Positions 12,542 to 52,702 of a stretch of DNA of 64,000 nt are shown here, in pieces. Under the pieces are notes generated by a model. That model made no database searches and was not told the DNA's origin. It saw only the letters and a list, made by a program, of their open reading frames with translations. How positions within the stretch are numbered: position 1 is the stretch's first letter; the number at the start of each line of letters is the position of its first letter. This stretch comes from an uncultured Bacilli bacterium (GTDB taxonomy: Bacteria > Bacillota_I > Bacilli_A > RF39 > UBA660), in the NCBI GenBank assembly GCA_944371305.1, contig CALVXM010000002.1, forward strand, positions 34,661 to 98,660, written 5' to 3'. The position numbers were made by a program, and so were the translations under genes.

Positions 12542-13093
12542 TTATAAATACACAGCTGTTTTTTTCTTAAAATCATAATTTTTTTTATCTTTATATTTTT
12601 CAACTAAAATAACTTTATTTTCTTTTAAACTATTTTGAACATCAATAACTCTCTGATTTTCTGAACCTTTAAATTTTAAATCCAAACTTCGTTGCTCTAA
12701 AATAAATTTGCCATCTACTAAAACATCAACATAGTTTAAAAATTCGATTATTTTAGGATTATTTAAAGCTAATAACTGTTCAAACGTATAACCGGTATAA
12801 CACCACACATTAAGATTAATTTTTTTACAATATTTAACTATTTCTAAACAAGCATCTACTTGAAACAAAGGATCTCCACCTGATAAGGTAATTCCATCTT
12901 GTCCTTGAATACTATTTAATTCTTCTTTAATTTCCTCAAGATCAACCAAATATCCACCTTTAAAATCCCATGTTTCTTGGTTATGGCATCCTTTACAATG
13001 ATGTGAACAACCTTGTGTCCACAAAACGACCCTAATTCCTTCACCATCAACGATACTATCCGGTTGTAATGGAGCTGCTAATCTAATTTTCAT
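12542..13093 (-). CDS. nrdG: Anaerobic ribonucleoside-triphosphate reductase activating protein (radical SAM)
   Basis: CSHHCKGCHNQETW radical-SAM cluster motif. The start overlaps the stop of the upstream nrdD fragment (TAATG). Confidence 0.9.
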   Translation of the reverse strand: MKIRLAAPLQPDSIVDGEGIRVVLWTQGCSHHCKGCHNQETWDFKGGYLVDLEEIKEELNSIQGQDGITLSGGDPLFQVDACLEIVKYCKKINLNVWCYTGYTFEQLLALNNPKIIEFLNYVDVLVDGKFILEQRSLDLKFKGSENQRVIDVQNSLKENKVILVEKYKDKKNYDFKKKTAVYL

Positions 13094-13254
13094 TATGCGT
13101 TCTCGATATCTTTAGTACCATGTTTTACGCGATCACGTTCTTCTGCTCTTTTACCATCGTTAAAACGGTCTACTGTTCCAACTAAATATCCCGTAATTCT
13201 TCTAATTCTTTCAAATTTAACGCCTTCGCCTACTTTTTTTTCTTCTAATTTCAT
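13093..13254 (-). CDS. nrdD: NrdD C-terminal glycyl-radical domain fragment (53 aa), separated from the main nrdD ORF by one in-frame TAG
   Basis: MKLEEKKVGEGVKFERIRRITGYLVGTVDRFNDGKRAEERDRVKHGTKDIENA contains the class III RNR glycyl-radical signature RxxGY. It has its own AGGAG RBS 5 nt upstream and is in the same frame as the upstream ORF. Confidence 0.7.
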   Translation of the reverse strand: MKLEEKKVGEGVKFERIRRITGYLVGTVDRFNDGKRAEERDRVKHGTKDIENA

Positions 13255-13263
13255 AAATCTCTC

Positions 13264-15576
13264 CTACCTTCCATAATTAGTCAATGACATATTTTTAAGA
13301 GTTTCTACACTAACTCCCTCACAATCGTGACGTCCACAACCAGGACATACATCACCAATTACACCTGTATATCCACAAACTGGATCACGGTCAACTGGAT
13401 GATTAATAGCTCCATAACCGATACCTTCTTTATACATAATTCTAACTATTTTTTCAAATGCTTCTAAATTATTAGTAGTATCGCCGTCTAATTCGACATA
13501 AGTAATATGTCCAGCATTAGTTAAAGCATGATATGGTGCTTCGATATGAATTTTTTCTGAAGCAGTTATTTTATAATAAACAGGAACATGGAATGAATTG
13601 GTATAATATTCTCTATCGGTAATTCCTTTTAATTTACCATAAATAGCTCTATCAATATTAGTAAATCTTCCTGATAGTCCTTCAGCAGGAGTAGCTAATA
13701 AAGTAAAGTTTAAATTATATTTACTAGCATATTCATCGCATTTTTTACGCATAAAAGTAATAATTTCATAACCCAATTTACGTGCTTTTTCGTCCTCACC
13801 ATGATGTTTTCCAACCAAAGCTTTTAAACATTCAGCAAGACCAATAAATCCAATTGATAAAGTACCATGTTTATAAATTTTACGTAATCTATCGTTTGGT
13901 TTTAGTTTTTCAGAATCAAGCCATACACCACTTCCTAATAAGAAAGGGAAGTTGTAAGGTTTTTTAGTACATTGAAATTCAAATCTTTCTAATAATTGAT
14001 CCCTTACTAAATCCATTTTTTCTTCTAATTCAGCATAAAATCCTTTTAAATCAGTTTCATTATTACTTACAATACCATGTTTAATACCTAATCTAGGTAA
14101 ATTAATAGTTGTAAAAGATAAATTTCCGCGTCCTGGTGTAACTGCCTTATCAGGATCAACGACATTTCCTAAAACTCTAGTTCGACATCCCATATAACCA
14201 ACTTCAGTAGTATAATCACCTTTATAATATTGTTTGTTAAAAGGAGCATCCATAAATGAAAAATTAGGGAATAATCTTTTAGCTGATACCTTGCAAGCTA
14301 ATTTAAATAAATCATAATTAGGATCATCAACATCAAAATTTGTTCCTTTTCTAACCTTAAAAATAGAAATTGGGAAAATTGGTGTTTCACCTTTTCCTAA
14401 ACCTGCATCAGTAGCTAACAAATAATTTTCAATAACCATTCTTCCCTCGGCTGATGTATCAGTACCAAAGTTAATTGAAGAAAATGGTACTTGTGCTCCA
14501 GCTCGAGAATGCATAGTATTTAAATTATGAATAAACGCCTCCATTGCTTGATAAGTTATCCGGTCAGTCTTAGCCAAAGCTTTTTCGTAAGCCATCTTAA
14601 ACAATCTTTCAACTTCGCTTGAATCTTTAGCAAAATGATAAAAATCGCTAATATCAAATTCAATACTTTCTAACTTATCAATTTCTTTAGCAATATTATT
14701 CATATTAACAAATTTAGCAAAATCACTATAATCTAATAAATCAGCTATAGTTTGTTTAAATTGTTTTTTAAATGTATTTAATACACCAGGAGCCATATAA
14801 TAATCAAAAGCTGGAATACTTTGACCTCCATGTTGATCATTTTGATTTGATTGAATAGCAATTGCGGCCAAAGCACTATATGACATTATATCTTTAGGTG
14901 CTCTTAAATGACCATGTCCAGTCGAAAAACCATTTTTAAATAATTTTTCCAAATCGATTTGCATGCATGTTGTTGTTCCCATCGCATAAAAGTCCATATC
15001 ATGAACATGAATATCGCCACTATCATGAGCTTCACTGAATTTATATTTCATTAAATAAGCTTTACAGAACTCTTTAGAAACAGTACTTCCATATTGTAAC
15101 ATTGTTCCCATCGCTGTATCACCATCAACGTTAGCATTTTCTCTTTTAGCATCTTCTTCGTGAGCTGATTTTAAACCCAATCCTTCGATAGCTTTTAAAA
15201 ATTTATGTAATTGTTTTTCATCAGAAAACATTTTACGTGATAAATTTCTTCTTTCGCGATATTCTGAAAAACTTTCATACACATCTTGATAGCCTTTTTT
15301 CTTCAATTCTTCTTCAATCATATCTTGAATAGTTTCAATTTTAATCTTTTCTTCGTTAGCGTACTCTTTTTCAATTCTTTTTAAAACACCCTCATACACT
15401 TTATTAACATCTTTAGTAGTATATTTAAGTTCTTCACCAGTTTCCTCATCGATTTCATTAACACTATCAAAACCTTTTTTTATTGCCAAAGCAATTTTTG
15501 AACCATTAAAATCTACTTTCTTACCATTTCTTTTTACAACTTGCAAAGTTGCCACTTTTTCCTCAACGTCTATCAT
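13264..15576 (-). CDS. nrdD: Anaerobic ribonucleoside-triphosphate reductase NrdD (catalytic body, ends after the Zn-ribbon)
   Basis: 770 aa with an N-terminal ATP-cone, conserved class III RNR core, and a C-terminal Cys cluster CGYTG..CPGCGRHDC, then stop TAG (13266..13264). Confidence 0.9.
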   Translation of the reverse strand: MIDVEEKVATLQVVKRNGKKVDFNGSKIALAIKKGFDSVNEIDEETGEELKYTTKDVNKVYEGVLKRIEKEYANEEKIKIETIQDMIEEELKKKGYQDVYESFSEYRERRNLSRKMFSDEKQLHKFLKAIEGLGLKSAHEEDAKRENANVDGDTAMGTMLQYGSTVSKEFCKAYLMKYKFSEAHDSGDIHVHDMDFYAMGTTTCMQIDLEKLFKNGFSTGHGHLRAPKDIMSYSALAAIAIQSNQNDQHGGQSIPAFDYYMAPGVLNTFKKQFKQTIADLLDYSDFAKFVNMNNIAKEIDKLESIEFDISDFYHFAKDSSEVERLFKMAYEKALAKTDRITYQAMEAFIHNLNTMHSRAGAQVPFSSINFGTDTSAEGRMVIENYLLATDAGLGKGETPIFPISIFKVRKGTNFDVDDPNYDLFKLACKVSAKRLFPNFSFMDAPFNKQYYKGDYTTEVGYMGCRTRVLGNVVDPDKAVTPGRGNLSFTTINLPRLGIKHGIVSNNETDLKGFYAELEEKMDLVRDQLLERFEFQCTKKPYNFPFLLGSGVWLDSEKLKPNDRLRKIYKHGTLSIGFIGLAECLKALVGKHHGEDEKARKLGYEIITFMRKKCDEYASKYNLNFTLLATPAEGLSGRFTNIDRAIYGKLKGITDREYYTNSFHVPVYYKITASEKIHIEAPYHALTNAGHITYVELDGDTTNNLEAFEKIVRIMYKEGIGYGAINHPVDRDPVCGYTGVIGDVCPGCGRHDCEGVSVETLKNMSLTNYGR

Positions 15577-15954
15577 AACTTACCTCAACTTTCTATTTTC
15601 ATTATAGTATTAATAACAACAAATGTCAAACAAAAATTCACATTTTTTAAAAAAATATTTTTACTAAAAATTTATTTTTTTAAAAATCCCTTTATTTTAA
15701 ATAATTTAATTTCTGAATTAATTTTAAATTAATCAAATTTGATATATTTGCTTAATTTCATTTTAAATTCAAGCAATATTCAAATAAATTAATTTTTTGT
15801 TAATATAAATAAAATAAATTTTTTTTAATTTTTGAAAAAAATTAAAAAAAGAATTTTTTTATTTTTACTTATTTTTTTCAAAATACAAAGCAAACCGATT
15901 AACAAACATTTTTTTGCTTTTAATAAATATACTTATATTATAATATACTTTAAT

Positions 15955-42076: not shown

Positions 42077-42108
42077 AAATCAAGGATTGATTTCCTTGAT
42101 TTTTATTT
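42076..42108. terminator. Bidirectional terminator after clpB
   Basis: AATCAAGGA-ttgatt-TCCTTGATT hairpin followed by TTTTATTTT. Confidence 0.5.
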
Positions 42109-43401
42109 TAAATTATAAATATATTCAATAAAATAAAGTGGTATATTAATTATTTTACCATCTTTCTTTAAATTATTTAAAGAAAATCTAAATGATATTT
42201 CATTATCATTTTTTAAATTATATTTAGTTAAACTAGTATTATTTGTACTTATATTTGCTTTTACCTCAATTGGAATTACGTTATTGTTTAGTTGAATGAC
42301 AAAATCAATTTCATTTCTATCAAAAGTATAATAATTAGGCGATTCCTCTAGTAAATAATTTAATATATTAGCAACATAGTTTTCCGTAAATGATCCCTTA
42401 AATTCTTCGAAAAGTTTATTGCCTTCTAAAATAATTTTACTATCTAAATTAGCCATTCTTCTTAAAAGACCGACATCATTCATATAAATTTTATAAGCAG
42501 ATAAATCTTGATATGCTTTTAATGGAAAGGCACATTTATTAACTAAATAACATTTACAAATTAAATTAGCGTCATTTAACCAATTTAAGGCCCCTTCATA
42601 TTCTCTTGCTCGAGCGCCTTCTTTTACTACTTGATAAACAAACTTTTTGTTTTCTTTAGCTAATTGTGATGGTATTCCATTCCATATTAAAGATATTTTA
42701 TTAGCTTCGGTTGTATCGACATGCTTAGAAAAATCTGCCTCATAAGAATCTAAAATATTTTTTTGAATTTTATTTACTTTTTCAATATCTTTATCATTCA
42801 CCCAACTATACACTACTTCAGGCATTCCACCAATAATATAATAAATTTTTAACTTTTCAATTAATTCATCTTCAAATATTTTTGGAATTTCACTTATCGA
42901 TTTAATTTGTTTCATAACTTCAACTAAATTTTCTAAACCATCAGCTATTAAAAATTCACTAAAAGTCATAGGGTATAAATTTAAAAAATCAACTTTACCA
43001 ACAGGAAAAGAGGTTTTAGCAAGTCTTATCCCCAAAAGTGAACCAGCACAAGCTATGTGATATTCATTAGCTTCTTCAAAAAAGTATTTTAATGAATTTA
43101 AAGCATTTGGACATTCTTGTATCTCATCAAATATTATTAATGTTGAACCAGGATTTATTTTCTTACCATTAGCTAAAGAAAGTTGCTCAATAATTCTTTT
43201 AGGATCTTTGGTATTTAAAAATAAATTGGCTAAACCTTCATCGTGATCAAAATTAAAATATGCTACATTATCATAGTTATTTAAGCCAAATTCTTTTAAT
43301 ATATATGTTTTTCCAACTTGTCTTGCCCCTTTTAAAATTAAAGGTTTTCTATCTTTGCTGTTTTTCCAATCAGATAATTTTTTAGTTATAAATCTTTGCA
43401 T
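42103..43401 (-). CDS. AAA+ ATPase of the DUF4143 family
   Basis: P-loop GARQVGKTY with a C-terminal DUF4143-like region; 432 aa. Confidence 0.65.
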   Translation of the reverse strand: MQRFITKKLSDWKNSKDRKPLILKGARQVGKTYILKEFGLNNYDNVAYFNFDHDEGLANLFLNTKDPKRIIEQLSLANGKKINPGSTLIIFDEIQECPNALNSLKYFFEEANEYHIACAGSLLGIRLAKTSFPVGKVDFLNLYPMTFSEFLIADGLENLVEVMKQIKSISEIPKIFEDELIEKLKIYYIIGGMPEVVYSWVNDKDIEKVNKIQKNILDSYEADFSKHVDTTEANKISLIWNGIPSQLAKENKKFVYQVVKEGARAREYEGALNWLNDANLICKCYLVNKCAFPLKAYQDLSAYKIYMNDVGLLRRMANLDSKIILEGNKLFEEFKGSFTENYVANILNYLLEESPNYYTFDRNEIDFVIQLNNNVIPIEVKANISTNNTSLTKYNLKNDNEISFRFSLNNLKKDGKIINIPLYFIEYIYNLK

Positions 43402-47203: not shown

Positions 47204-48146
47204 ATTTTAAATTATACTCATCACAAAGTTCTTCGGTTAAATCTATAGCTTGGGGTATGGGATCACCACAAGGACCAGTAAATTTTATTGCACTAGAAAA
47301 GGCATTTTTTATTTTTTCATTAACAGATATAGCTTCAGTTTTATAACCTACATTAGCAAAAGTCAAATAATTATATGAATATTCAAAGCGATGATTATTA
47401 ATACTATAAGTAAAATCTTTAATTCCTTCTATTTTACTTTTTTTATATTGTGACAATAACTTTTCAGCAGTTTGTTCCTTCGATTTATTAAATTTTAAAT
47501 AATCCCATTTATTTTTTAAATCCTCTTCTGATACCTCACCATCAACAGCATCTTCTCCCGGCCAATAACTAACATAATTGCCACTTTTAATATAAGCATG
47601 CGGATAAACTTCTTTAAGATTAGTAGTAAACATGGCGAATCCACACAATACTGTGTTTTGTTCGATATGGACTTTAATATTATCATTTAAATTAAGAACA
47701 TTTTCTGGCTTTTTTGTCGTATCGACATTAGTATTAGAACCTACTTCATCATCTTTTTCTTCTACAACGATATTTTTTTCCCACTTAGCTTTTAAAGTTA
47801 TCTCTTTGTCTATTTTAGCAGTAAAATCAAATGTTTTACCATCTAATTGCCACTCTATAAAAGTATATCCATTTTTAATAGGATTATCGGGCTTTTCTAC
47901 ACATTCTCCTTTTAAAACAACAACACTATCGGTATTAGAACCGCCATCACTATCAAAATTAACTGTATAATAAACTTCTTCAACTATTTTATCGTTATTT
48001 TCTTCAACATTCGCATTTTGTTCTAGATTTTGTTTATTATCATCTATATCACTATTTTTAGTATAATTTAAAATTACAAAAATTAAAGACAATATTAAAA
48101 TCAATAATATTCCAACTAATATAAAAACTAATTTCTTATTTTTCAT
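47190..48146 (-). CDS. Membrane-anchored protein with Listeria-Bacteroides (Flg_new) repeat
   Basis: N-terminal TM helix and the motif YTVNFDSDGGS...NGYTFIEWQLDGKTFDF characteristic of the Flg_new repeat. Confidence 0.45.
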   Translation of the reverse strand: MKNKKLVFILVGILLILILSLIFVILNYTKNSDIDDNKQNLEQNANVEENNDKIVEEVYYTVNFDSDGGSNTDSVVVLKGECVEKPDNPIKNGYTFIEWQLDGKTFDFTAKIDKEITLKAKWEKNIVVEEKDDEVGSNTNVDTTKKPENVLNLNDNIKVHIEQNTVLCGFAMFTTNLKEVYPHAYIKSGNYVSYWPGEDAVDGEVSEEDLKNKWDYLKFNKSKEQTAEKLLSQYKKSKIEGIKDFTYSINNHRFEYSYNYLTFANVGYKTEAISVNEKIKNAFSSAIKFTGPCGDPIPQAIDLTEELCDEYNLKCDRW

Positions 48147-48267
48147 AATTATTCACCCATTAAAATTTTATCATCTTTAGCTATTTTATTCAATATTCGC
48201 CTTGATATTAATTTTAAAATTAATTAAATCAACAATATATTTTATTCAACAAAATTAATATTATTTA

Positions 48268-48297
48268 ACAAAAAAATCGACTCATAAGAATCGATTT
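48268..48297 (-). terminator. Intrinsic terminator closing the tRNA-His-adjacent islet operon
   Basis: AAATCGA-ttcttatgag-TCGATTT hairpin followed by a T7 run on the minus strand, downstream of the last islet gene. Confidence 0.5.
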
Positions 48298-48411
48298 CTA
48301 TCTTGAAGTCTATTCGACTTTTTTCCATTCTGGGGCAATAAACAAACGAGTTTTGCACCCAAGTAGTAAAAGTATTTAATAATACTTGGTAAATTAATTG
48401 TAGCACATTTT

Positions 48412-49047
48412 TTATAATTTGTTAATATATTCAGTTAAAATTAAGTTTAATAATTTCATTATTTTTTCTTTTAAAACAGTAACCTCTTGTAATGCTGTTT
48501 CATTAAAAATATCACGTGCTAAAGGCATATCAACCCCTATTTCGTAATGATATTTGTTATCATATAAACAAATTCCAACATCAATATTTTCATCAATCAA
48601 TGTTTTATTTATTTTTTTATATAATTCAAAATCTTTTGGTTGAACACAATAATGAAATACATCATTTCTAAAAGACAAATATTTAGCATTTACTGTATCA
48701 GGATATTCTTCTGGTTTTAAAGTTTCATCATTTAATTCCTCAAATAGCTTTCTAATTTCTTCATTAGTATTCCAATTATCATATAATTTTTTATAATATG
48801 GCGATCTTTTTATAGTACCTAGTAGTTTTAACCCCTCTTTTAAATTGCTTACAAGATTTTTAAACAAATACATTAACATATTACTTAATTGACTATTTTC
48901 TGTATCTTTATTGCCCTTATAAATTGAATCAAACATTTGCGTATTTATAAACAAATCATTATATAAACGCGAAATATTATAATATGCAAAACCTGTATAA
49001 TCAGGTTTATAAAATTTTTCTCTAGTTATATTTTTATTTTCTATCAT
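48412..49047 (-). CDS. Hypothetical protein, third gene of the QueC-like operon (candidate effector)
   Basis: 211 aa, with no recognisable motifs (no TatD HxH, no nuclease or TM signatures seen). The start is 2 nt after the QueC-like stop, with a GGAG RBS inside the upstream gene. Confidence 0.4.
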   Translation of the reverse strand: MIENKNITREKFYKPDYTGFAYYNISRLYNDLFINTQMFDSIYKGNKDTENSQLSNMLMYLFKNLVSNLKEGLKLLGTIKRSPYYKKLYDNWNTNEEIRKLFEELNDETLKPEEYPDTVNAKYLSFRNDVFHYCVQPKDFELYKKINKTLIDENIDVGICLYDNKYHYEIGVDMPLARDIFNETALQEVTVLKEKIMKLLNLILTEYINKL

Positions 49048-49049
49048 AA

Positions 49050-50336
49050 TTACTCCAATACTTTAAAATACTTTTCTAATTCTTTTGCAAAATTATTAAG
49101 TAAACTTTCTATTTCGCTTAAATAATTATCATCGCAATAATACCTCTTATCCAAATCAAGATAATTATATATACTTTTATCCATTATTGCATTATAAAAT
49201 TGTTTATAATATAAAATTAAAGACTTTTTTTCACTATATTTATAATATGCGGCCTTTAAATCTTCATCTATATTATTTTTTTTAGAAATACTACATTCAT
49301 ATTCTTTTATTTTTTTTAAATCAATTAAGTTTTTGGGTAAACAATAATCGGAATCATACATGTCTAATCCATTATTATGAATTCCTATTTGACGTAATAT
49401 ACATGCAATGCAAACTCCACAATGAAAATTACCTTTATGCTTATTTCTAAAATGTACTATTCCTGGATTTTTTGAACATGTCCTAGTATTATTTTTAATA
49501 TGCATTAAATAATTATCTGGAATAAAACTTATCACCTCAGATTTTGTTTTATATTTAAACGGATTAATAACTGAAATATTAATACCAAGTTTTTCTAATA
49601 TTTCATTAAACATAAATAATGTTTTTTGATTAGTGGTCTTAGTAACTCTTCGACTAAAATTAAATTTTGGATTTAAAGACATTATTCCATTTTCGTATAT
49701 TTTAATTTTATTTATGTTGTAATAATCTGCATAAATTATACAAGAAACTAAAAACATTAACGATCTTGTTCTTTCTGTATAATGACTATCACATTTAAAA
49801 TTTTTCTTTAAAATTTCTACTCTAACATTATTAACATCTTTTATTAATTCATCATAAATTTTGGCTGAGTTATTCAACTCTATTGAATTAGTCTGAAATG
49901 TAACAAATATCGTATTATTAGATTTTTCAAATTGCGTTCCAGCAAGTGAATCTAACCCTCCCGATAGGAGACAAATTGAATTGTATTTAATTGTATCTAC
50001 ATCCAGATGATTATTATCAATAAATTTAGGAGTTTTAATTTTATAAAAATTTATATTCCAATTTTCTCCATTAGTAACATATTTTACTAATTTATTAAGT
50101 TCATCTTTTATATTATTAAATAAATCTAAATTATTAACTGGAATATTAAGTGTCAATTTTTTCAGATTATTAGTGTCTTCATCTCTTGGAGTATAAAAAT
50201 CAGTATATACAATATACGATAATGCATCAAACAAGTCTAAAACTATAGAATTACCATAATTTTTAATTCCTAAAAGATTGTTCGCATTATAATGTTCTTG
50301 ATACGGGAGTTTTTCTTTAAATAAAATACTTTTCAT
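49050..50336 (-). CDS. QueC-like PP-loop ATPase (QatC/Cap9-type, with ~120-aa N-terminal extension)
   Basis: PP-loop SGGLDS (ICLLSGGLDSLAG) and a C-terminal Zn cysteine cluster C-x17-C-x2-C-x2-C (HCGVCIACILR), as in QueC. At 428 aa it is twice the size of housekeeping QueC. The start overlaps the upstream stop (TAATG). Confidence 0.75.
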   Translation of the reverse strand: MKSILFKEKLPYQEHYNANNLLGIKNYGNSIVLDLFDALSYIVYTDFYTPRDEDTNNLKKLTLNIPVNNLDLFNNIKDELNKLVKYVTNGENWNINFYKIKTPKFIDNNHLDVDTIKYNSICLLSGGLDSLAGTQFEKSNNTIFVTFQTNSIELNNSAKIYDELIKDVNNVRVEILKKNFKCDSHYTERTRSLMFLVSCIIYADYYNINKIKIYENGIMSLNPKFNFSRRVTKTTNQKTLFMFNEILEKLGINISVINPFKYKTKSEVISFIPDNYLMHIKNNTRTCSKNPGIVHFRNKHKGNFHCGVCIACILRQIGIHNNGLDMYDSDYCLPKNLIDLKKIKEYECSISKKNNIDEDLKAAYYKYSEKKSLILYYKQFYNAIMDKSIYNYLDLDKRYYCDDNYLSEIESLLNNFAKELEKYFKVLE

Positions 50337-50998
50337 TATGCACCAACCCTCCTTAATTTATTCATTATAGAAGTCATTGTATTCTGTACCTTTTTATCAA
50401 AATTATTTTCATCATTAATTTCCATTTTCTCAATATCATTAATTATTATAGGATAAACTTTCAAGTTCATATAAGAATCTAAATCAGTATTATAATCTTC
50501 AGTGCTAAATTCTGGCAATTCATTTATACAATCTTCAAATGTATATTTTTTATAAATGTTTTCAACAATATTTTTAATAAATAATGATATAAATTTTAAA
50601 ATATTTCCATTAGCATCAAAAACCGATTCCTCATCTATACTTTCTTTAAAGGATGTTTTTAATAATTCGTCATCATCTATACCTAAATAATCGCATAATA
50701 TTTCCTTTTGCTCAATTATAGAAAAAGATGATATACCACCTAATCCTATTGATGATAAAGAATTACTATGGTAAGCTTTTGAAACTCTATTTAATTTTTG
50801 AATACATTGAGATAATTTTTGAGAATATAATTTGTTTTGCAATTCACTTCTAACTTTAGATACTCCTTTTGATGGATAAATCATTTCAGAAAGTAATTGC
50901 CCAATACCTTTTCCTGTTTTTCCTACTATTCCATCAGTTATTCCTGATTGAATTATTTTTGATGTTCTTTTATATGTGTTTCTTGTTGATGAACCCAT
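50336..50998 (-). CDS. Small partner protein with predicted Met-Gly N-terminus (QatB-like candidate substrate)
   Basis: The track ORF starts at GTG 51028. In-frame ATGs at 51013 (MGSGSMGSS...) and 50998 (MGSSTRN..., GGGGAG RBS 7 nt upstream) both give Met-Gly N-termini. Translationally coupled to the QueC-like gene; no known domain. Confidence 0.45.
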   Translation of the reverse strand: MGSSTRNTYKRTSKIIQSGITDGIVGKTGKGIGQLLSEMIYPSKGVSKVRSELQNKLYSQKLSQCIQKLNRVSKAYHSNSLSSIGLGGISSFSIIEQKEILCDYLGIDDDELLKTSFKESIDEESVFDANGNILKFISLFIKNIVENIYKKYTFEDCINELPEFSTEDYNTDLDSYMNLKVYPIIINDIEKMEINDENNFDKKVQNTMTSIMNKLRRVGA

Positions 50999-51077
50999 AC
51001 TACCACTCCCCATAAAAAAAGGCCACACAAAACTTACTCAAAGTCTGTACTAGCCCTTTAAATCTATCAATATTATA

Positions 51078-51599
51078 TCAAATATTACTACAAATTACTA
51101 TGTTTCCTTTGTTTTTTTGATTTTGTAGCATCCATTTATATTCTTCTAATTCTTTTAAATAATCTCTTCTAAAATAATTTTCATGTAACCATTTAACTCC
51201 TTCTGCTTTTACAAAAATCATACCTGCTGATTCAAACTTAATTGGATATGGAAACTCCTTTTGCATTCTGTGGACTGCTACTTGTATTACATTTCTACTT
51301 TTATTAAATTCTAAATCTAAAAATCTTAATAAAGTATTTTGATATTTCTTAGGTTGAGGAATTATTCCTAATTCCTGTCCTAAAGCAAATATTCTTTTTT
51401 TATAGAATTCTATTTCTAAAGTTAAATAGTGTTCTTCTTTATTAAAATAAACTTCTTTTAACCATTCAACACATTCTTGTTTTATATATACCTTTTCTTT
51501 ATTATTTTCTTTTATTCTTTTAATCCAAGATTCTAAAGGATGTCTTCTTTCTATATTTCTCATAATTCTACCAAATTGTTTTGTAGTTAATGAAAACAT
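51078..51599 (-). CDS. Hypothetical protein with internal duplication (possible phage antirepressor ORF6C-like module)
   Basis: Two copies of Y/F-[IV]-K-x-E-x-V-x-W-L-x-E-x-YF (YIKQECVEWLKEVYF / FVKAEGVKWLHENYF). Weak or absent RBS. Confidence 0.3.
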   Translation of the reverse strand: MFSLTTKQFGRIMRNIERRHPLESWIKRIKENNKEKVYIKQECVEWLKEVYFNKEEHYLTLEIEFYKKRIFALGQELGIIPQPKKYQNTLLRFLDLEFNKSRNVIQVAVHRMQKEFPYPIKFESAGMIFVKAEGVKWLHENYFRRDYLKELEEYKWMLQNQKNKGNIVICSNI

Positions 51600-51757
51600 T
51601 TCTTGAACTTGTTTTCTATCTATTAATTTTTCACTTATAAAATATCTCCTTTCAAAAGATAAAGGGACGGGTAACGTAATATAAAAATTTTATCTATCAA
51701 GCATGGTGTATACACACCCGTCCACTTGTTAGGGAATACTCCCTAAAACCCTAATAA

Positions 51758-51964
51758 TTAGTCTCCGACAGTTTTATTTTTTTCTATATATTTTTTACTA
51801 ACTTCATTAGATTTTTCAATCATTTCTTTCACTTCTTTTTCATAACTCTTATTATTAATTAATACTTCAGAAAGCAAAGAATAAGATATATCATTTGTGT
51901 TTTCTTTAAAATACTCTAACAATTGTGGTGCAACTATTTCAAAGAAATAATTTATAAAATTCAC
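51758..51964 (-). CDS. Hypothetical small protein
   Basis: 68-aa ORF at the tRNA-proximal edge of the islet; no motifs. Confidence 0.25.
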   Translation of the reverse strand: MNFINYFFEIVAPQLLEYFKENTNDISYSLLSEVLINNKSYEKEVKEMIEKSNEVSKKYIEKNKTVGD

Positions 51965-52051
51965 CGCCTTTACAAAAGAAAAAAGTCCATAATACGAAGT
52001 ATTACGAACTTTTACTTATTTAACACACAAAAGTGTGCGTAAATTTCAAAG

Positions 52052-52128
52052 TGGGGCGCAATAAGGGATTCGAACCCTTGCATAACGGAACCACAATCCG
52101 CCGTGTTAACCCCTTCACCAATTGCGCC
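52052..52128 (-). tRNA. tRNA-His (anticodon GTG) with encoded G-1 and CCA
   Basis: Manually folded: 7-bp acceptor stem GCGCAAT/ATTGCGC, extra 5' G-1 pairing with discriminator C73, anticodon stem GCGGA/TCCGT with loop TTGTGGT (GTG), T-arm AAGGG-TTCGAAT-CCCTT, and encoded CCA. Confidence 0.9.
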
Positions 52129-52265
52129 ATATATAACAACAACACGTATAATTCTAACAAATTTTTTATTACTTTGCAAGTATTTTTATATATTTTATTA
52201 AAAATTAGTTTTTTTACCTATACATAACGCCTATAAAATCATAATATAGGCTGAGGAGGAATAAA

Positions 52266-52688
52266 ATGTATAACTACTATAATAACCATCAAAATATAAA
52301 TTATGATGGTAACGATTTAAGAAACATAAATTATCAAAATGATAATTTATTTAATCCTTATCAAGGATTAATCAGAGGAAACTTGTTTAAAAATATTTAT
52401 AAACCATACAAAAATGAAAAACCATATGAAATTAAACCAATGAATGAACAAGCAAAAATGTTAACAGATTTAGATGCGCTAGAATTTGCAATAATAGATT
52501 TAAATCTATATTTAGATGTAAATCCTGATGATAGAAAAGCTATAGAATTATTTAATCAATATCGTGTTGAAAATGAAGAACTATTAAAAATATATCAAAA
52601 CAAATTTGGTCCAATTTTTTTGAACAGTGATTCATTAACCAATATGCCATGGATGTGGGATAATCGTCCTTGGCCTTGGGAAAACTAA
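52266..52688 (+). CDS. cotJB: Spore coat protein CotJB with N-terminal CotJA-like extension (apparent cotJA-cotJB fusion)
   Basis: The C-terminal half LTDLDALEFAIIDLNLYLDVNPDD...NQYRVENEELLKIYQNKFGP matches CotJB. The N-terminal ~58 aa carry the CotJA-like NPYQGLIRGNLF motif. GAGGAGG RBS. Confidence 0.7.
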   Translation: MYNYYNNHQNINYDGNDLRNINYQNDNLFNPYQGLIRGNLFKNIYKPYKNEKPYEIKPMNEQAKMLTDLDALEFAIIDLNLYLDVNPDDRKAIELFNQYRVENEELLKIYQNKFGPIFLNSDSLTNMPWMWDNRPWPWEN

Positions 52689-52702
52689 GGGGGTAAATAA
52701 AA

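Follow-up and report, generated by a model that had tools for sequence, protein, structure and literature searches.

We analysed a 64-kb window from an uncultured Bacilli bacterium (contig CALVXM010000002.1; "the window" denotes this whole stretch of 64,000 nucleotides), in which a compact block of genes lies at the 3' end of a tRNA-His gene. The block contains five minus-strand open reading frames (ORFs), as an earlier note on this DNA had stated; they are given here by window position and encode 68, 173, 220, 428 and 211 amino acids (aa). The region is likely a 3.7-kb integrative islet bearing a three-gene, translationally coupled variant of the Qat antiphage system that is devoid of QatA and operates by the mechanism proposed below. 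Its main features are:

48331..52051, minus strand: inserted islet, 3,721 bp, from the tRNA 3' end to the end of its imperfect copy
52052..52127, minus strand: tRNA-His (anticodon GTG; ARAGORN; Rfam tRNA, 60 bits), whose 3' end TTATTGCGCCCCA is the integration point
48331..48341, minus strand: imperfect copy, in direct orientation, of the 3' end of tRNA-His, TTATTGCCCCA (TTATTGC--CCCA vs TTATTGCGCCCCA), forming the right end of the islet
50336..50998, minus strand: putative QatB-like partner of 220 aa that begins MGSSTRN and would be modified by the QatC-like enzyme
49050..50336, minus strand: QatC-like enzyme of the QueC family, 428 aa (NCBIfam, PADLOC, Pfam, solved structures)
48412..49047, minus strand: third gene, 211 aa, helical, with R127-x4-H132-Y133, candidate HEPN-like effector

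The last three genes run from 50998 down to 48412. The 220-aa gene overlaps the 428-aa gene by one base at 50336 (stop and start in TAATG), and a gap of 2 nt separates the stop of the 428-aa gene from the start of the 211-aa gene, an arrangement that bears out the translational coupling put forward in the earlier note. Read from an upstream GTG, the first gene would encode 230 aa; the ATG at 50998, which gives 220 aa, is taken as the real start because it is preceded by a GGGGAG Shine-Dalgarno sequence and every database homologue starts there. The ratio of non-synonymous to synonymous substitution rates (dN/dS) is 0.08-0.13 for all three genes at a dS of ~0.1, indicating purifying selection (0.125 for the 428-aa gene and 0.10 for the 211-aa gene).

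Integration at the tRNA-His gene

The tRNA-His(GTG) is the sole tRNA of the window according to ARAGORN; it had been placed on the correct strand by the earlier note, with an end coordinate of 52128 where ARAGORN gives 52127. The earlier note had also read the adjoining block as an islet, with a degenerate copy of the tRNA end as a possible att remnant, and had suggested defining its boundaries by comparing the same tRNA-His locus in related genomes. This comparison now fixes them. A metagenome scan for the junction retrieved an empty site in a contig of the same species (L181, 98.5% identity on both sides), in which window positions 52689..52052 (cotJB and tRNA-His) run straight into 48341..47325; because L181 lacks exactly that segment, the insertion is 48331..52051. 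Within the islet, 48331..51971 is 99.1% identical (the QatC-like gene alone 99%) to a block in another species (L015; OZ007025.1, a metagenome-assembled genome (MAG) of an uncultured Bacilli), whose flanks have diverged from those of the window (90% identity for the tRNA region and 67% for cotJ, both located elsewhere in that genome). The same block is present in contigs L095-L097 at 93% identity to the window.

Similarity among L015, L095/L097, L096 and window/L098 ends precisely after GTTTATTGCCCCA, and four different flanks follow thereafter. By itself, the 11-mer repeat is unremarkable, since 38 of 100 shuffles of the 64 kb yield at least two matches with at most one mismatch; its weight lies in its position at this breakpoint and not in 11-mer statistics. 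The GC content of the islet (0.20-0.26) differs from that of its flanks (0.26-0.33), which consist of ordinary core genes. These data confirm that the block is a genuine insertion at the tRNA-His 3' end and that it moved recently; with an empty site on the one hand and a 99% identical copy in another species on the other, it is a very clear-cut example of recent horizontal transfer.

The islet displays the features of tRNA-associated integrative islands, namely insertion at a tRNA 3' end, a distal direct repeat and an empty site in a relative. Family library searches found no integrase or recombinase among its five ORFs. In L095, the same Qat module occupies the distal end of a ~8.9-kb tRNA-His island (L095 3729-12668), where ~5 kb encoding a large serine recombinase and several small enzymes lie between tRNA-His and the module; in L015 the two are separated by ~4.2 kb. 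The window islet has lost the L095-type segment, and its junction sequence suggests a deletion between repeated AAAGGnGGTGAATTT stretches. The L095 island also encodes a YbaK/tRNA_edit protein, a LigT-like 2',5' RNA ligase, a GNAT acetyltransferase and a PNPOx-like protein, and a second tRNA_edit gene lies beyond it.

The QatC-like enzyme and its partner

By its sequence, the 428-aa protein is a QatC homologue of a divergent subfamily, a QueC-family enzyme extended at both termini. It matches the NCBIfam QatC model (NF041925) with E=4.3e-47 and 160.9 bits, the PADLOC QatC model with E=2.8e-39 and, over residues 44-321, the solved QatC chains 9vlk_A (E=7.8e-21) and 9zee_B (E=1.5e-16), and the Pfam QueC model gives 25 bits for a gathering score of 22. 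The earlier note had read this protein as a QueC-like enzyme of the defence type, a view that NCBIfam, PADLOC and the solved structures sharpen to specifically QatC-like.

The protein was aligned with subfamily members and canonical QatCs and checked for the published QatC motifs (PMC13329287, PMC13279940). Retained are D46x4R51, [E]xWxxxF, the SGGLDS at 125-130, R189xR191xxxF195, E215-N-G217 (ExG), P258x4T264K265 and R315, together with all four Zn cysteines (C287, C306, C309 and C312). T232xT234 is likewise retained, aligned to T278/T280 of solved QatC and replacing the Tyr/Asp of QueC and Cap9. WxR is missing across the subfamily, and HP is changed to NQ in the clade of the window.

Canonical QatB is a helical protein of ten helices that forms a 1:1 complex with QatC and bears an N-terminal tail with a conserved MGTS (PMC13279940); its Gly2 is essential, the G2D mutant losing defence as do mutants of the QatC SGGxDS motif (PMC13279940). 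In the family of the 220-aa partner, the N-terminus MGSSTRN is invariant in 18/18 sequences, down to 28% identity. We then took a census of 94 loci with our own hidden Markov models (HMMs) and inspection of start sites: MG[ST]S begins the partner in 20/20 subfamily loci (six being exactly MGTS), and MGTS begins 62 of the 63 canonical QatB proteins.

Aligning a profile of 31 partners to one of 60 QatBs with hhalign gave 96.8% (E=3.7e-10) over the full length, the main difference being a deletion of ~37 residues that corresponds to the acidic, proline-rich tail. With the first 12 residues trimmed, the value was 82-91%; the reversed partner profile gave 0.8-3.8%, and the third protein, which is also helical, at most 0.5% against QatB. 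We conclude in favour of remote QatB homology because of the 96.8% score and these clean controls; a shallow comparison of the partner with three QatB sequences (1.8%) is superseded by the deeper alignments. NCBIfam NF041924 (QatB) was silent on five subfamily partners and detected canonical QatB controls at E=1e-7 to 5e-12, and precomputed Pfam annotation places PF28083 on canonical QatB and not on the partners. Our local Pfam scan had no PF28083 model and left canonical QatB unmatched too, so that the blank it returned for the partner is uninformative.

The AlphaFold2 (AF2) model of the partner comprises ten helices. QatB is its top Foldseek match, and QatB chains are the only targets with a TM-score near 0.5. 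The order of the partner and QatC-like genes and their start/stop overlap also agree with qatB-qatC. Together, these comparisons suggest that the 220-aa protein is a remote, shortened homologue of QatB, the profile evidence being good and the fold evidence suggestive. The earlier note had remarked on a small protein with a Met-Gly N-terminus; the identification with QatB, from MG[ST]S and hhalign, is added here. As a speculation, the loss of WxR in QatC and the replacement of the Pro16/Trp18 tail motif by STR[NRK] in the partner might reflect co-variation at the tail-binding surface.

An exchangeable third gene

The family of the 211-aa protein is tiny, with 21 matches among 1.84 billion representatives. 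Its residues R127, H132 and Y133 are invariant in 17 members down to 19% identity (consensus R-[N/H/D]-x-x-x-H-Y), and the protein has the HEPN Rx4-6H motif in a domain predicted to be all-helical. In HEPN domains, a polar residue typically follows the Arg of this motif, and HEPN RNases of the Rx4-6H type serve in Cas13, Csm6 and Abi systems and in toxin-antitoxin pairs. Pfam returned weak HEPN matches (HEPN_Cthe2314, E=0.03 in two members, and HEPN_Apea), and a weak PDB profile match (E=1.1) aligns the motif with two separate RxxxxH sites, both of them catalytic motifs, of a "riboendonuclease". No HEPN or nuclease family matched the protein above threshold, nor did any model of PADLOC or NCBIfam. 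Its AF2 model has a pLDDT (predicted local distance difference test) of 75.7, is unreliable at residues 127-158 and finds generic helical bundles as fold matches.

The position of the gene is more telling. Among the loci compared, it is occupied as follows:

~205-aa Rx4H family: window, L001-4, L008-11, L015-18, L023, L095-98
real TatD/QatD: L022
no third gene, or an unrelated defence system next to the pair: L005-7, L019-21

In the Izemoplasmatales locus L022, a partner (MGSSKRN) and a QatC of the same subfamily, 40% identical to that of the window, are followed by a TatD (Pfam TatD E=3e-35, QatD HMM E=2e-60), with no QatA. A second QatA-less three-gene locus (L180, 4282-6828) comes from OR846725.1, labelled "UNVERIFIED_ORG Listeria phage LM 4-11-1"; the three proteins encoded there are a partner of 206 aa (MGTNRARI), a QatC-like protein of 400 aa and a TatD/QatD of 259 aa. 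The stronger argument for an effector is that the third gene fills the slot that holds the nuclease TatD in these sister loci. An HEPN-like RNase effector is our leading hypothesis for the 211-aa protein, a tentative one that we would call possible rather than probable. It resembles HEPN RNases in being all-helical, in its size of ~200 aa, in the invariant R-[N/H/D]-x-x-x-H and in its place at the effector position of a defence operon; it differs from them in passing no family threshold and in a model that is poor around the motif.

Around these two loci, L022 encodes a 1,025-aa protein after TatD (12660-15737; Pfam RVT_1, E=9e-7) that is probably a defence-associated reverse transcriptase, and L180 has a DUF262-like gene upstream and thiamine-biosynthesis-like genes downstream. 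Because of these flanking genes, L180 is probably host rather than phage DNA. As a Listeria-derived relative, it has a culturable host usable for experiments.

Distribution and genomic neighbourhoods

The QatC-like proteins related to that of the window form a coherent subfamily of ~430 aa, with ~90 protein clusters at 40-97% identity. Nine loci were found in 185,579 species genomes, all of them in MAGs from gut or sediment that belong to Bacilli, Clostridia or Izemoplasmatales. In the census, QatA accompanies 69 of 71 canonical-type QatC loci, usually along with QatD, and the census HMMs detected it in 0 of 20 subfamily loci. Neither the QatA nor the QatD/TatD HMM has a match in the entire window, in keeping with the earlier note, which had seen no QatA ATPase or TatD here. 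It had also reported no CD-NTase (cGAS/DncV-like nucleotidyltransferase) and no partner resembling tRNA-guanine transglycosylase (TGT): the islet proteins have no such match in Pfam or PADLOC, and none was found in the neighbourhoods of relatives.

The neighbours of the subfamily are overwhelmingly defence genes, including HsdR, AAA_21/RloB, Fic, GmrSD, DUF4238 and SIR2 with an integrase, and further type III restriction-modification, AAA_15/21 and reverse transcriptase genes. A MazG-like protein and an SLFN-g3-type helicase adjoin the QatBC-like pair in two unrelated contexts: convergent with the pair and accompanied by a 126-aa ORF in L005-L007 (9297-11896, minus strand), and directly upstream and co-directional in L011 (5161-7350). 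This recurrent neighbour might work together with the pair or form a system of its own. In the window itself, a 432-aa ORF starting MQRFITKKLSDWKNSKDRKPLILKGARQVGKTY (42103..43401, minus strand) resembles, by eye, the AAA_14/DUF4143-type ATPases found beside the pair in L005-7.

Searches of phage, plasmid and IMG/VR collections returned only distant QatC relatives. Among the IMG/VR loci (L100-L179), 75 of 80 carry a long QatC-like protein (600-720 aa) with a C-terminal extension of ~250-300 aa, and these 75 viral-contig loci have no QatA, QatB or QatD. In the four that were inspected (L100, L101, L105 and L122), the long gene is preceded by an overlapping ORF of ~262 aa starting MGH[VQ]RLG, as in:

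L105: 7049-7837 and 7827-9965
L122: 7049-7837 and 7827-9929
L100: 1343-2128 and 2121-4022

A serine recombinase lies near the pair in L105 and L122. To judge from the sequences, these viral-contig pairs look like a third lineage of "Met-Gly partner + QueC-like enzyme".

Hairpins and accessory ORFs

The remaining elements in and next to the islet are:

51981..52013, minus strand: island-borne hairpin terminator now behind the tRNA, 15-bp stem and T run (pattern scan)
48268..48297, minus strand: native tRNA-His terminator, host DNA outside the islet, directly behind tRNA-His in L181, L182, L183, L185 and L186
~51012..51067, minus strand: hairpin and U7 just ahead of the operon, -16.5 kcal/mol, z -3.0
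51758..51964, minus strand: 68-aa ORF with GTG start, first gene of the islet, no family match
51078..51599, minus strand: 173-aa ORF with internal duplication, variable accessory gene, no significant family match

Two strong terminators had been described in the earlier note as bracketing the block. Both fold well: the first (51975..52020) has -14.8 kcal/mol (z -5.6) and the second (48262..48305) has -13.3 kcal/mol (z -3.5). A U tract comes after each, U7 in the case of the second, which was picked up by folding and not by the terminator pattern scan. The second, 48268..48297, is host DNA rather than part of the block. We rejected it as the operon's own terminator, since it is the native terminator of the tRNA in the empty site, displaced by 3.7 kb. 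The first arrived with the island, being absent from the empty site L181 and following tRNA-His in the occupied loci L015 and L095. The third hairpin, at 51012..51067, could terminate transcription of the 173-aa gene or serve the operon as a leader or attenuator. An extended -10-like sequence, TGATATAAT, overlaps the stop codon of the 173-aa ORF (51080..51072, minus strand), and this hairpin with its U7 comes next, up to the Shine-Dalgarno sequence of the operon.

The ~70 nt that follow tRNA-His (GAATGGAAAAAAGTCGAATAGACTTCAAGATAGAAATCGA..., including the native terminator; window 48267..48336) are 98.6-100% identical in L182, L183, L185 and L186. Where aligned, tRNA-His itself is just 82-84% identical in L182, L185 and L186, and the cotJ/ddl genes ~66% in L182, L183 and L186; in L184, the same stretch (68 nt) lies behind a non-tRNA end, "...TTTTGCCCCA". 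This trailer, far better conserved than its surroundings, may serve as an attB target or belong to a mobile unit.

Of the two accessory genes, the 68-aa ORF has 95% nucleotide identity in L015 and L095 and a dN/dS of ~0.3. The 173-aa ORF contains an internal repeat (E=1e-4; V-x-WL-x-E-x-YF), visible in the DNA as a 49-nt repeat of 76% identity at a spacing of 273 nt. With 77% nucleotide identity to L095 and indels, it diverges much faster than the Qat genes, and it is not present upstream of the module in L002, L005 and L008. Because it is so much more variable, we did not count it as part of the system.

Proposed mechanism and alternative explanations

From the observed insertion, homologies, motif conservation, architecture, defence-island contexts and purifying selection, we infer a chemistry, an anti-phage phenotype and an RNase activity along the following lines. 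The initiator Met of a protein is removed when Gly is residue 2, and in the 220-aa partner this would expose Gly2. Enzymes of the QueC family with a PP-loop activate a carboxylate by adenylation for transfer onto an amine; the QatC-like enzyme would bind ATP via its SGGxDS PP-loop, activate a carboxylate and ligate it to the Gly2 amine of the partner, by analogy with Cap9-CdnD and QatB-QatC. The acceptor in Cap9-CdnD is the protein's Gly2 (bioRxiv 10.1101/2025.04.06.647259), and the same has been proposed for QatC-QatB (PMC13279940). The adduct may not be a deazaguanine here, because Thr-x-Thr replaces the Tyr/Asp that recognise 7-carboxy-7-deazaguanine (CDG). The 211-aa protein would be an exchangeable third component, most likely a nuclease-type effector or a range extender and possibly an HEPN-like RNase, and the modified complex would restrict phage either directly or via this protein.

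Several points weigh against this scheme. The 428-aa protein fails the NF041925 equivalog cutoff (160.9 against 280 bits), and, with WxR absent and HP changed to NQ, its enzyme activity could differ. AF2 folds the N-terminal region of the partner as helices and not as a long disordered tail. The third gene is missing in L005-7 and L019-21 and is thus not essential to the pair. The antiphage role is drawn from homology and neighbourhood, and even for canonical QatC, published work could not reconstitute the activity and gives no account of how modification of QatB stops phage (PMC13279940).

An alternative that we consider unlikely, though worth keeping in mind, is that the QatB-like/QatC-like pair is a complete unit and the 211-aa protein a regulator, sensor or adaptor, for example one that partly replaces QatA. 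QatBC alone suffices against lambda-vir (PMC13279940), the loci that have no third gene carry just the pair, and the 211-aa protein combines generic helical-bundle folds with the lack of a significant HEPN or nuclease family match. However, conservation of R-x4-H-Y without exception in 17 sequences, at identities as low as 19%, is typical of catalytic residues, L022 and L180 have a real nuclease, TatD, in the same position, and the third gene is tightly coupled, with a dN/dS of 0.10.

Much less probable still is that the module serves mainly for addiction or stabilisation of the mobile island, in the manner of a toxin-antitoxin pair, instead of phage defence. It does ride a small islet as well as larger recombinase-bearing islands, the HEPN-like protein could be a toxin, and the window kept the module although the recombinase is gone; against this, the homologous QatBC core is experimentally anti-phage (PMC13279940) and the relatives lie among many other defence genes, and addiction and defence roles are in any case not mutually exclusive.

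That the 428-aa protein is a metabolic QueC paralogue making a 7-deazaguanine derivative for tRNA or DNA modification, as its above-threshold Pfam QueC score (25 vs 22 bits) and its conserved PP-loop and Zn site might suggest, is highly improbable: the true-QueC model TIGR00364 gives 18 bits for a cutoff of 150.3, the QueC catalytic motifs YxQxHxxE, VPxRN and YPDC are not in the 428-aa sequence when read directly, no queD, queE, queF, tgt or dpdA Pfam family occurs in the neighbourhoods of relatives, and Rfam finds no preQ1 riboswitch at the locus. QatC likewise has none of these catalytic motifs, and E. coli QatC does not complement a queC deletion (PMC13329287). Queuosine metabolism was rejected on the TIGR00364 score, the riboswitch absence and the neighbourhood listings. 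The earlier note had named a queuosine-pathway context in relatives as what would refute its reading, and none was found there.

We thus retain the QatA-less Qat module as the likely identity of the operon. One extension of it, which we put forward as a doubtful but attractive idea, is a Qat free of a sensor ATPase: the modified QatB-like protein would itself be the signal that switches on an interchangeable nuclease (a TatD DNase in some lineages, a hitherto unrecognised family of Rx4H HEPN-like RNases in others), so that a QueC-catalysed conjugate of a protein with a nucleobase (or other moiety) would act as a proteinaceous second messenger licensing abortive infection. If true, this reading of the signal would identify the long-sought step downstream of QatB modification. 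The lineage offers a natural three-gene QatA-less Qat with a short, apparently ordered QatB and an invariant MGSSTRN tip, and hence a compact setting in which to analyse the N-terminal adduct by mass spectrometry. The effector swap between TatD and the Rx4H protein at a fixed operon position provides a genetic handle on the role of the third gene.

Comparison with known systems

The earlier note had presented the locus as a candidate novel defence system, in the form of a minimal or new variant. The second part is upheld, the locus being a divergent Qat-type module; the novelty was overstated, since the QatBC core and its essential Gly are already published (PMC13279940). QatBC was described in 2026 as the sufficient core of QatABCD, active alone against some phages including lambda-vir (PMC13279940), and, according to a survey of the QueC family, qatA or qatD lies next to roughly one in three QatC genes (PMC13329287). 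What is new is the lineage, which dispenses with QatA, has a QatB with a shorter tail and carries another gene in third place; no QatA-less lineage, shortened QatB or non-TatD third gene is described in the literature searched. Detection models appear to miss the system, QatC scoring below the cutoff and PADLOC and NCBIfam being silent on the partner and the third gene. Because current models appear to miss the subfamily, Qat-type immunity in gut Firmicutes is probably under-counted.

Type IV CBASS (cyclic oligonucleotide-based antiphage signalling system; Cap9-CdnD, bioRxiv 10.1101/2025.04.06.647259) is alike in combining an ATP-dependent enzyme of the QueC family with a Met-Gly acceptor partner. 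Cap9, however, is a minimal enzyme of ~185 aa with the Tyr/Asp residues that bind CDG, whereas the window enzyme has 428 aa and Thr-x-Thr, and type IV CBASS relies on a CD-NTase partner and a required TGT-like Cap10, neither of which was found here.

QatABCD (Gao et al. 2020; core: PMC13279940, PMC13376578, PMC13639016) is far closer. In both, QatC is extended at its N-terminus and carries SGGxDS, Thr-x-Thr and a Cys4 Zn site. The gene upstream overlaps that of QatC and encodes a helical MG[TS]S protein of ~220 aa, here with remote homology to QatB, and on the other side a third gene overlaps or adjoins that of QatC; both reside in defence islands and on mobile elements. Unlike QatABCD, the subfamily has no QatA KAP NTPase in 20/20 loci, is confined to MAGs of low-GC gut Bacilli, Clostridia and Izemoplasmatales, and has an unrelated Rx4H protein standing in for TatD, or an empty third position. 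Its partner has an invariant basic STR[NRK] in place of the acidic proline-rich disordered linker and Pro16/Trp18, and its QatC has no WxR and, in the clade of the window, no HP either. The loci L022 and L180 share with the window the three-gene layout free of QatA, and differ from it in carrying a real TatD/QatD as the third gene.

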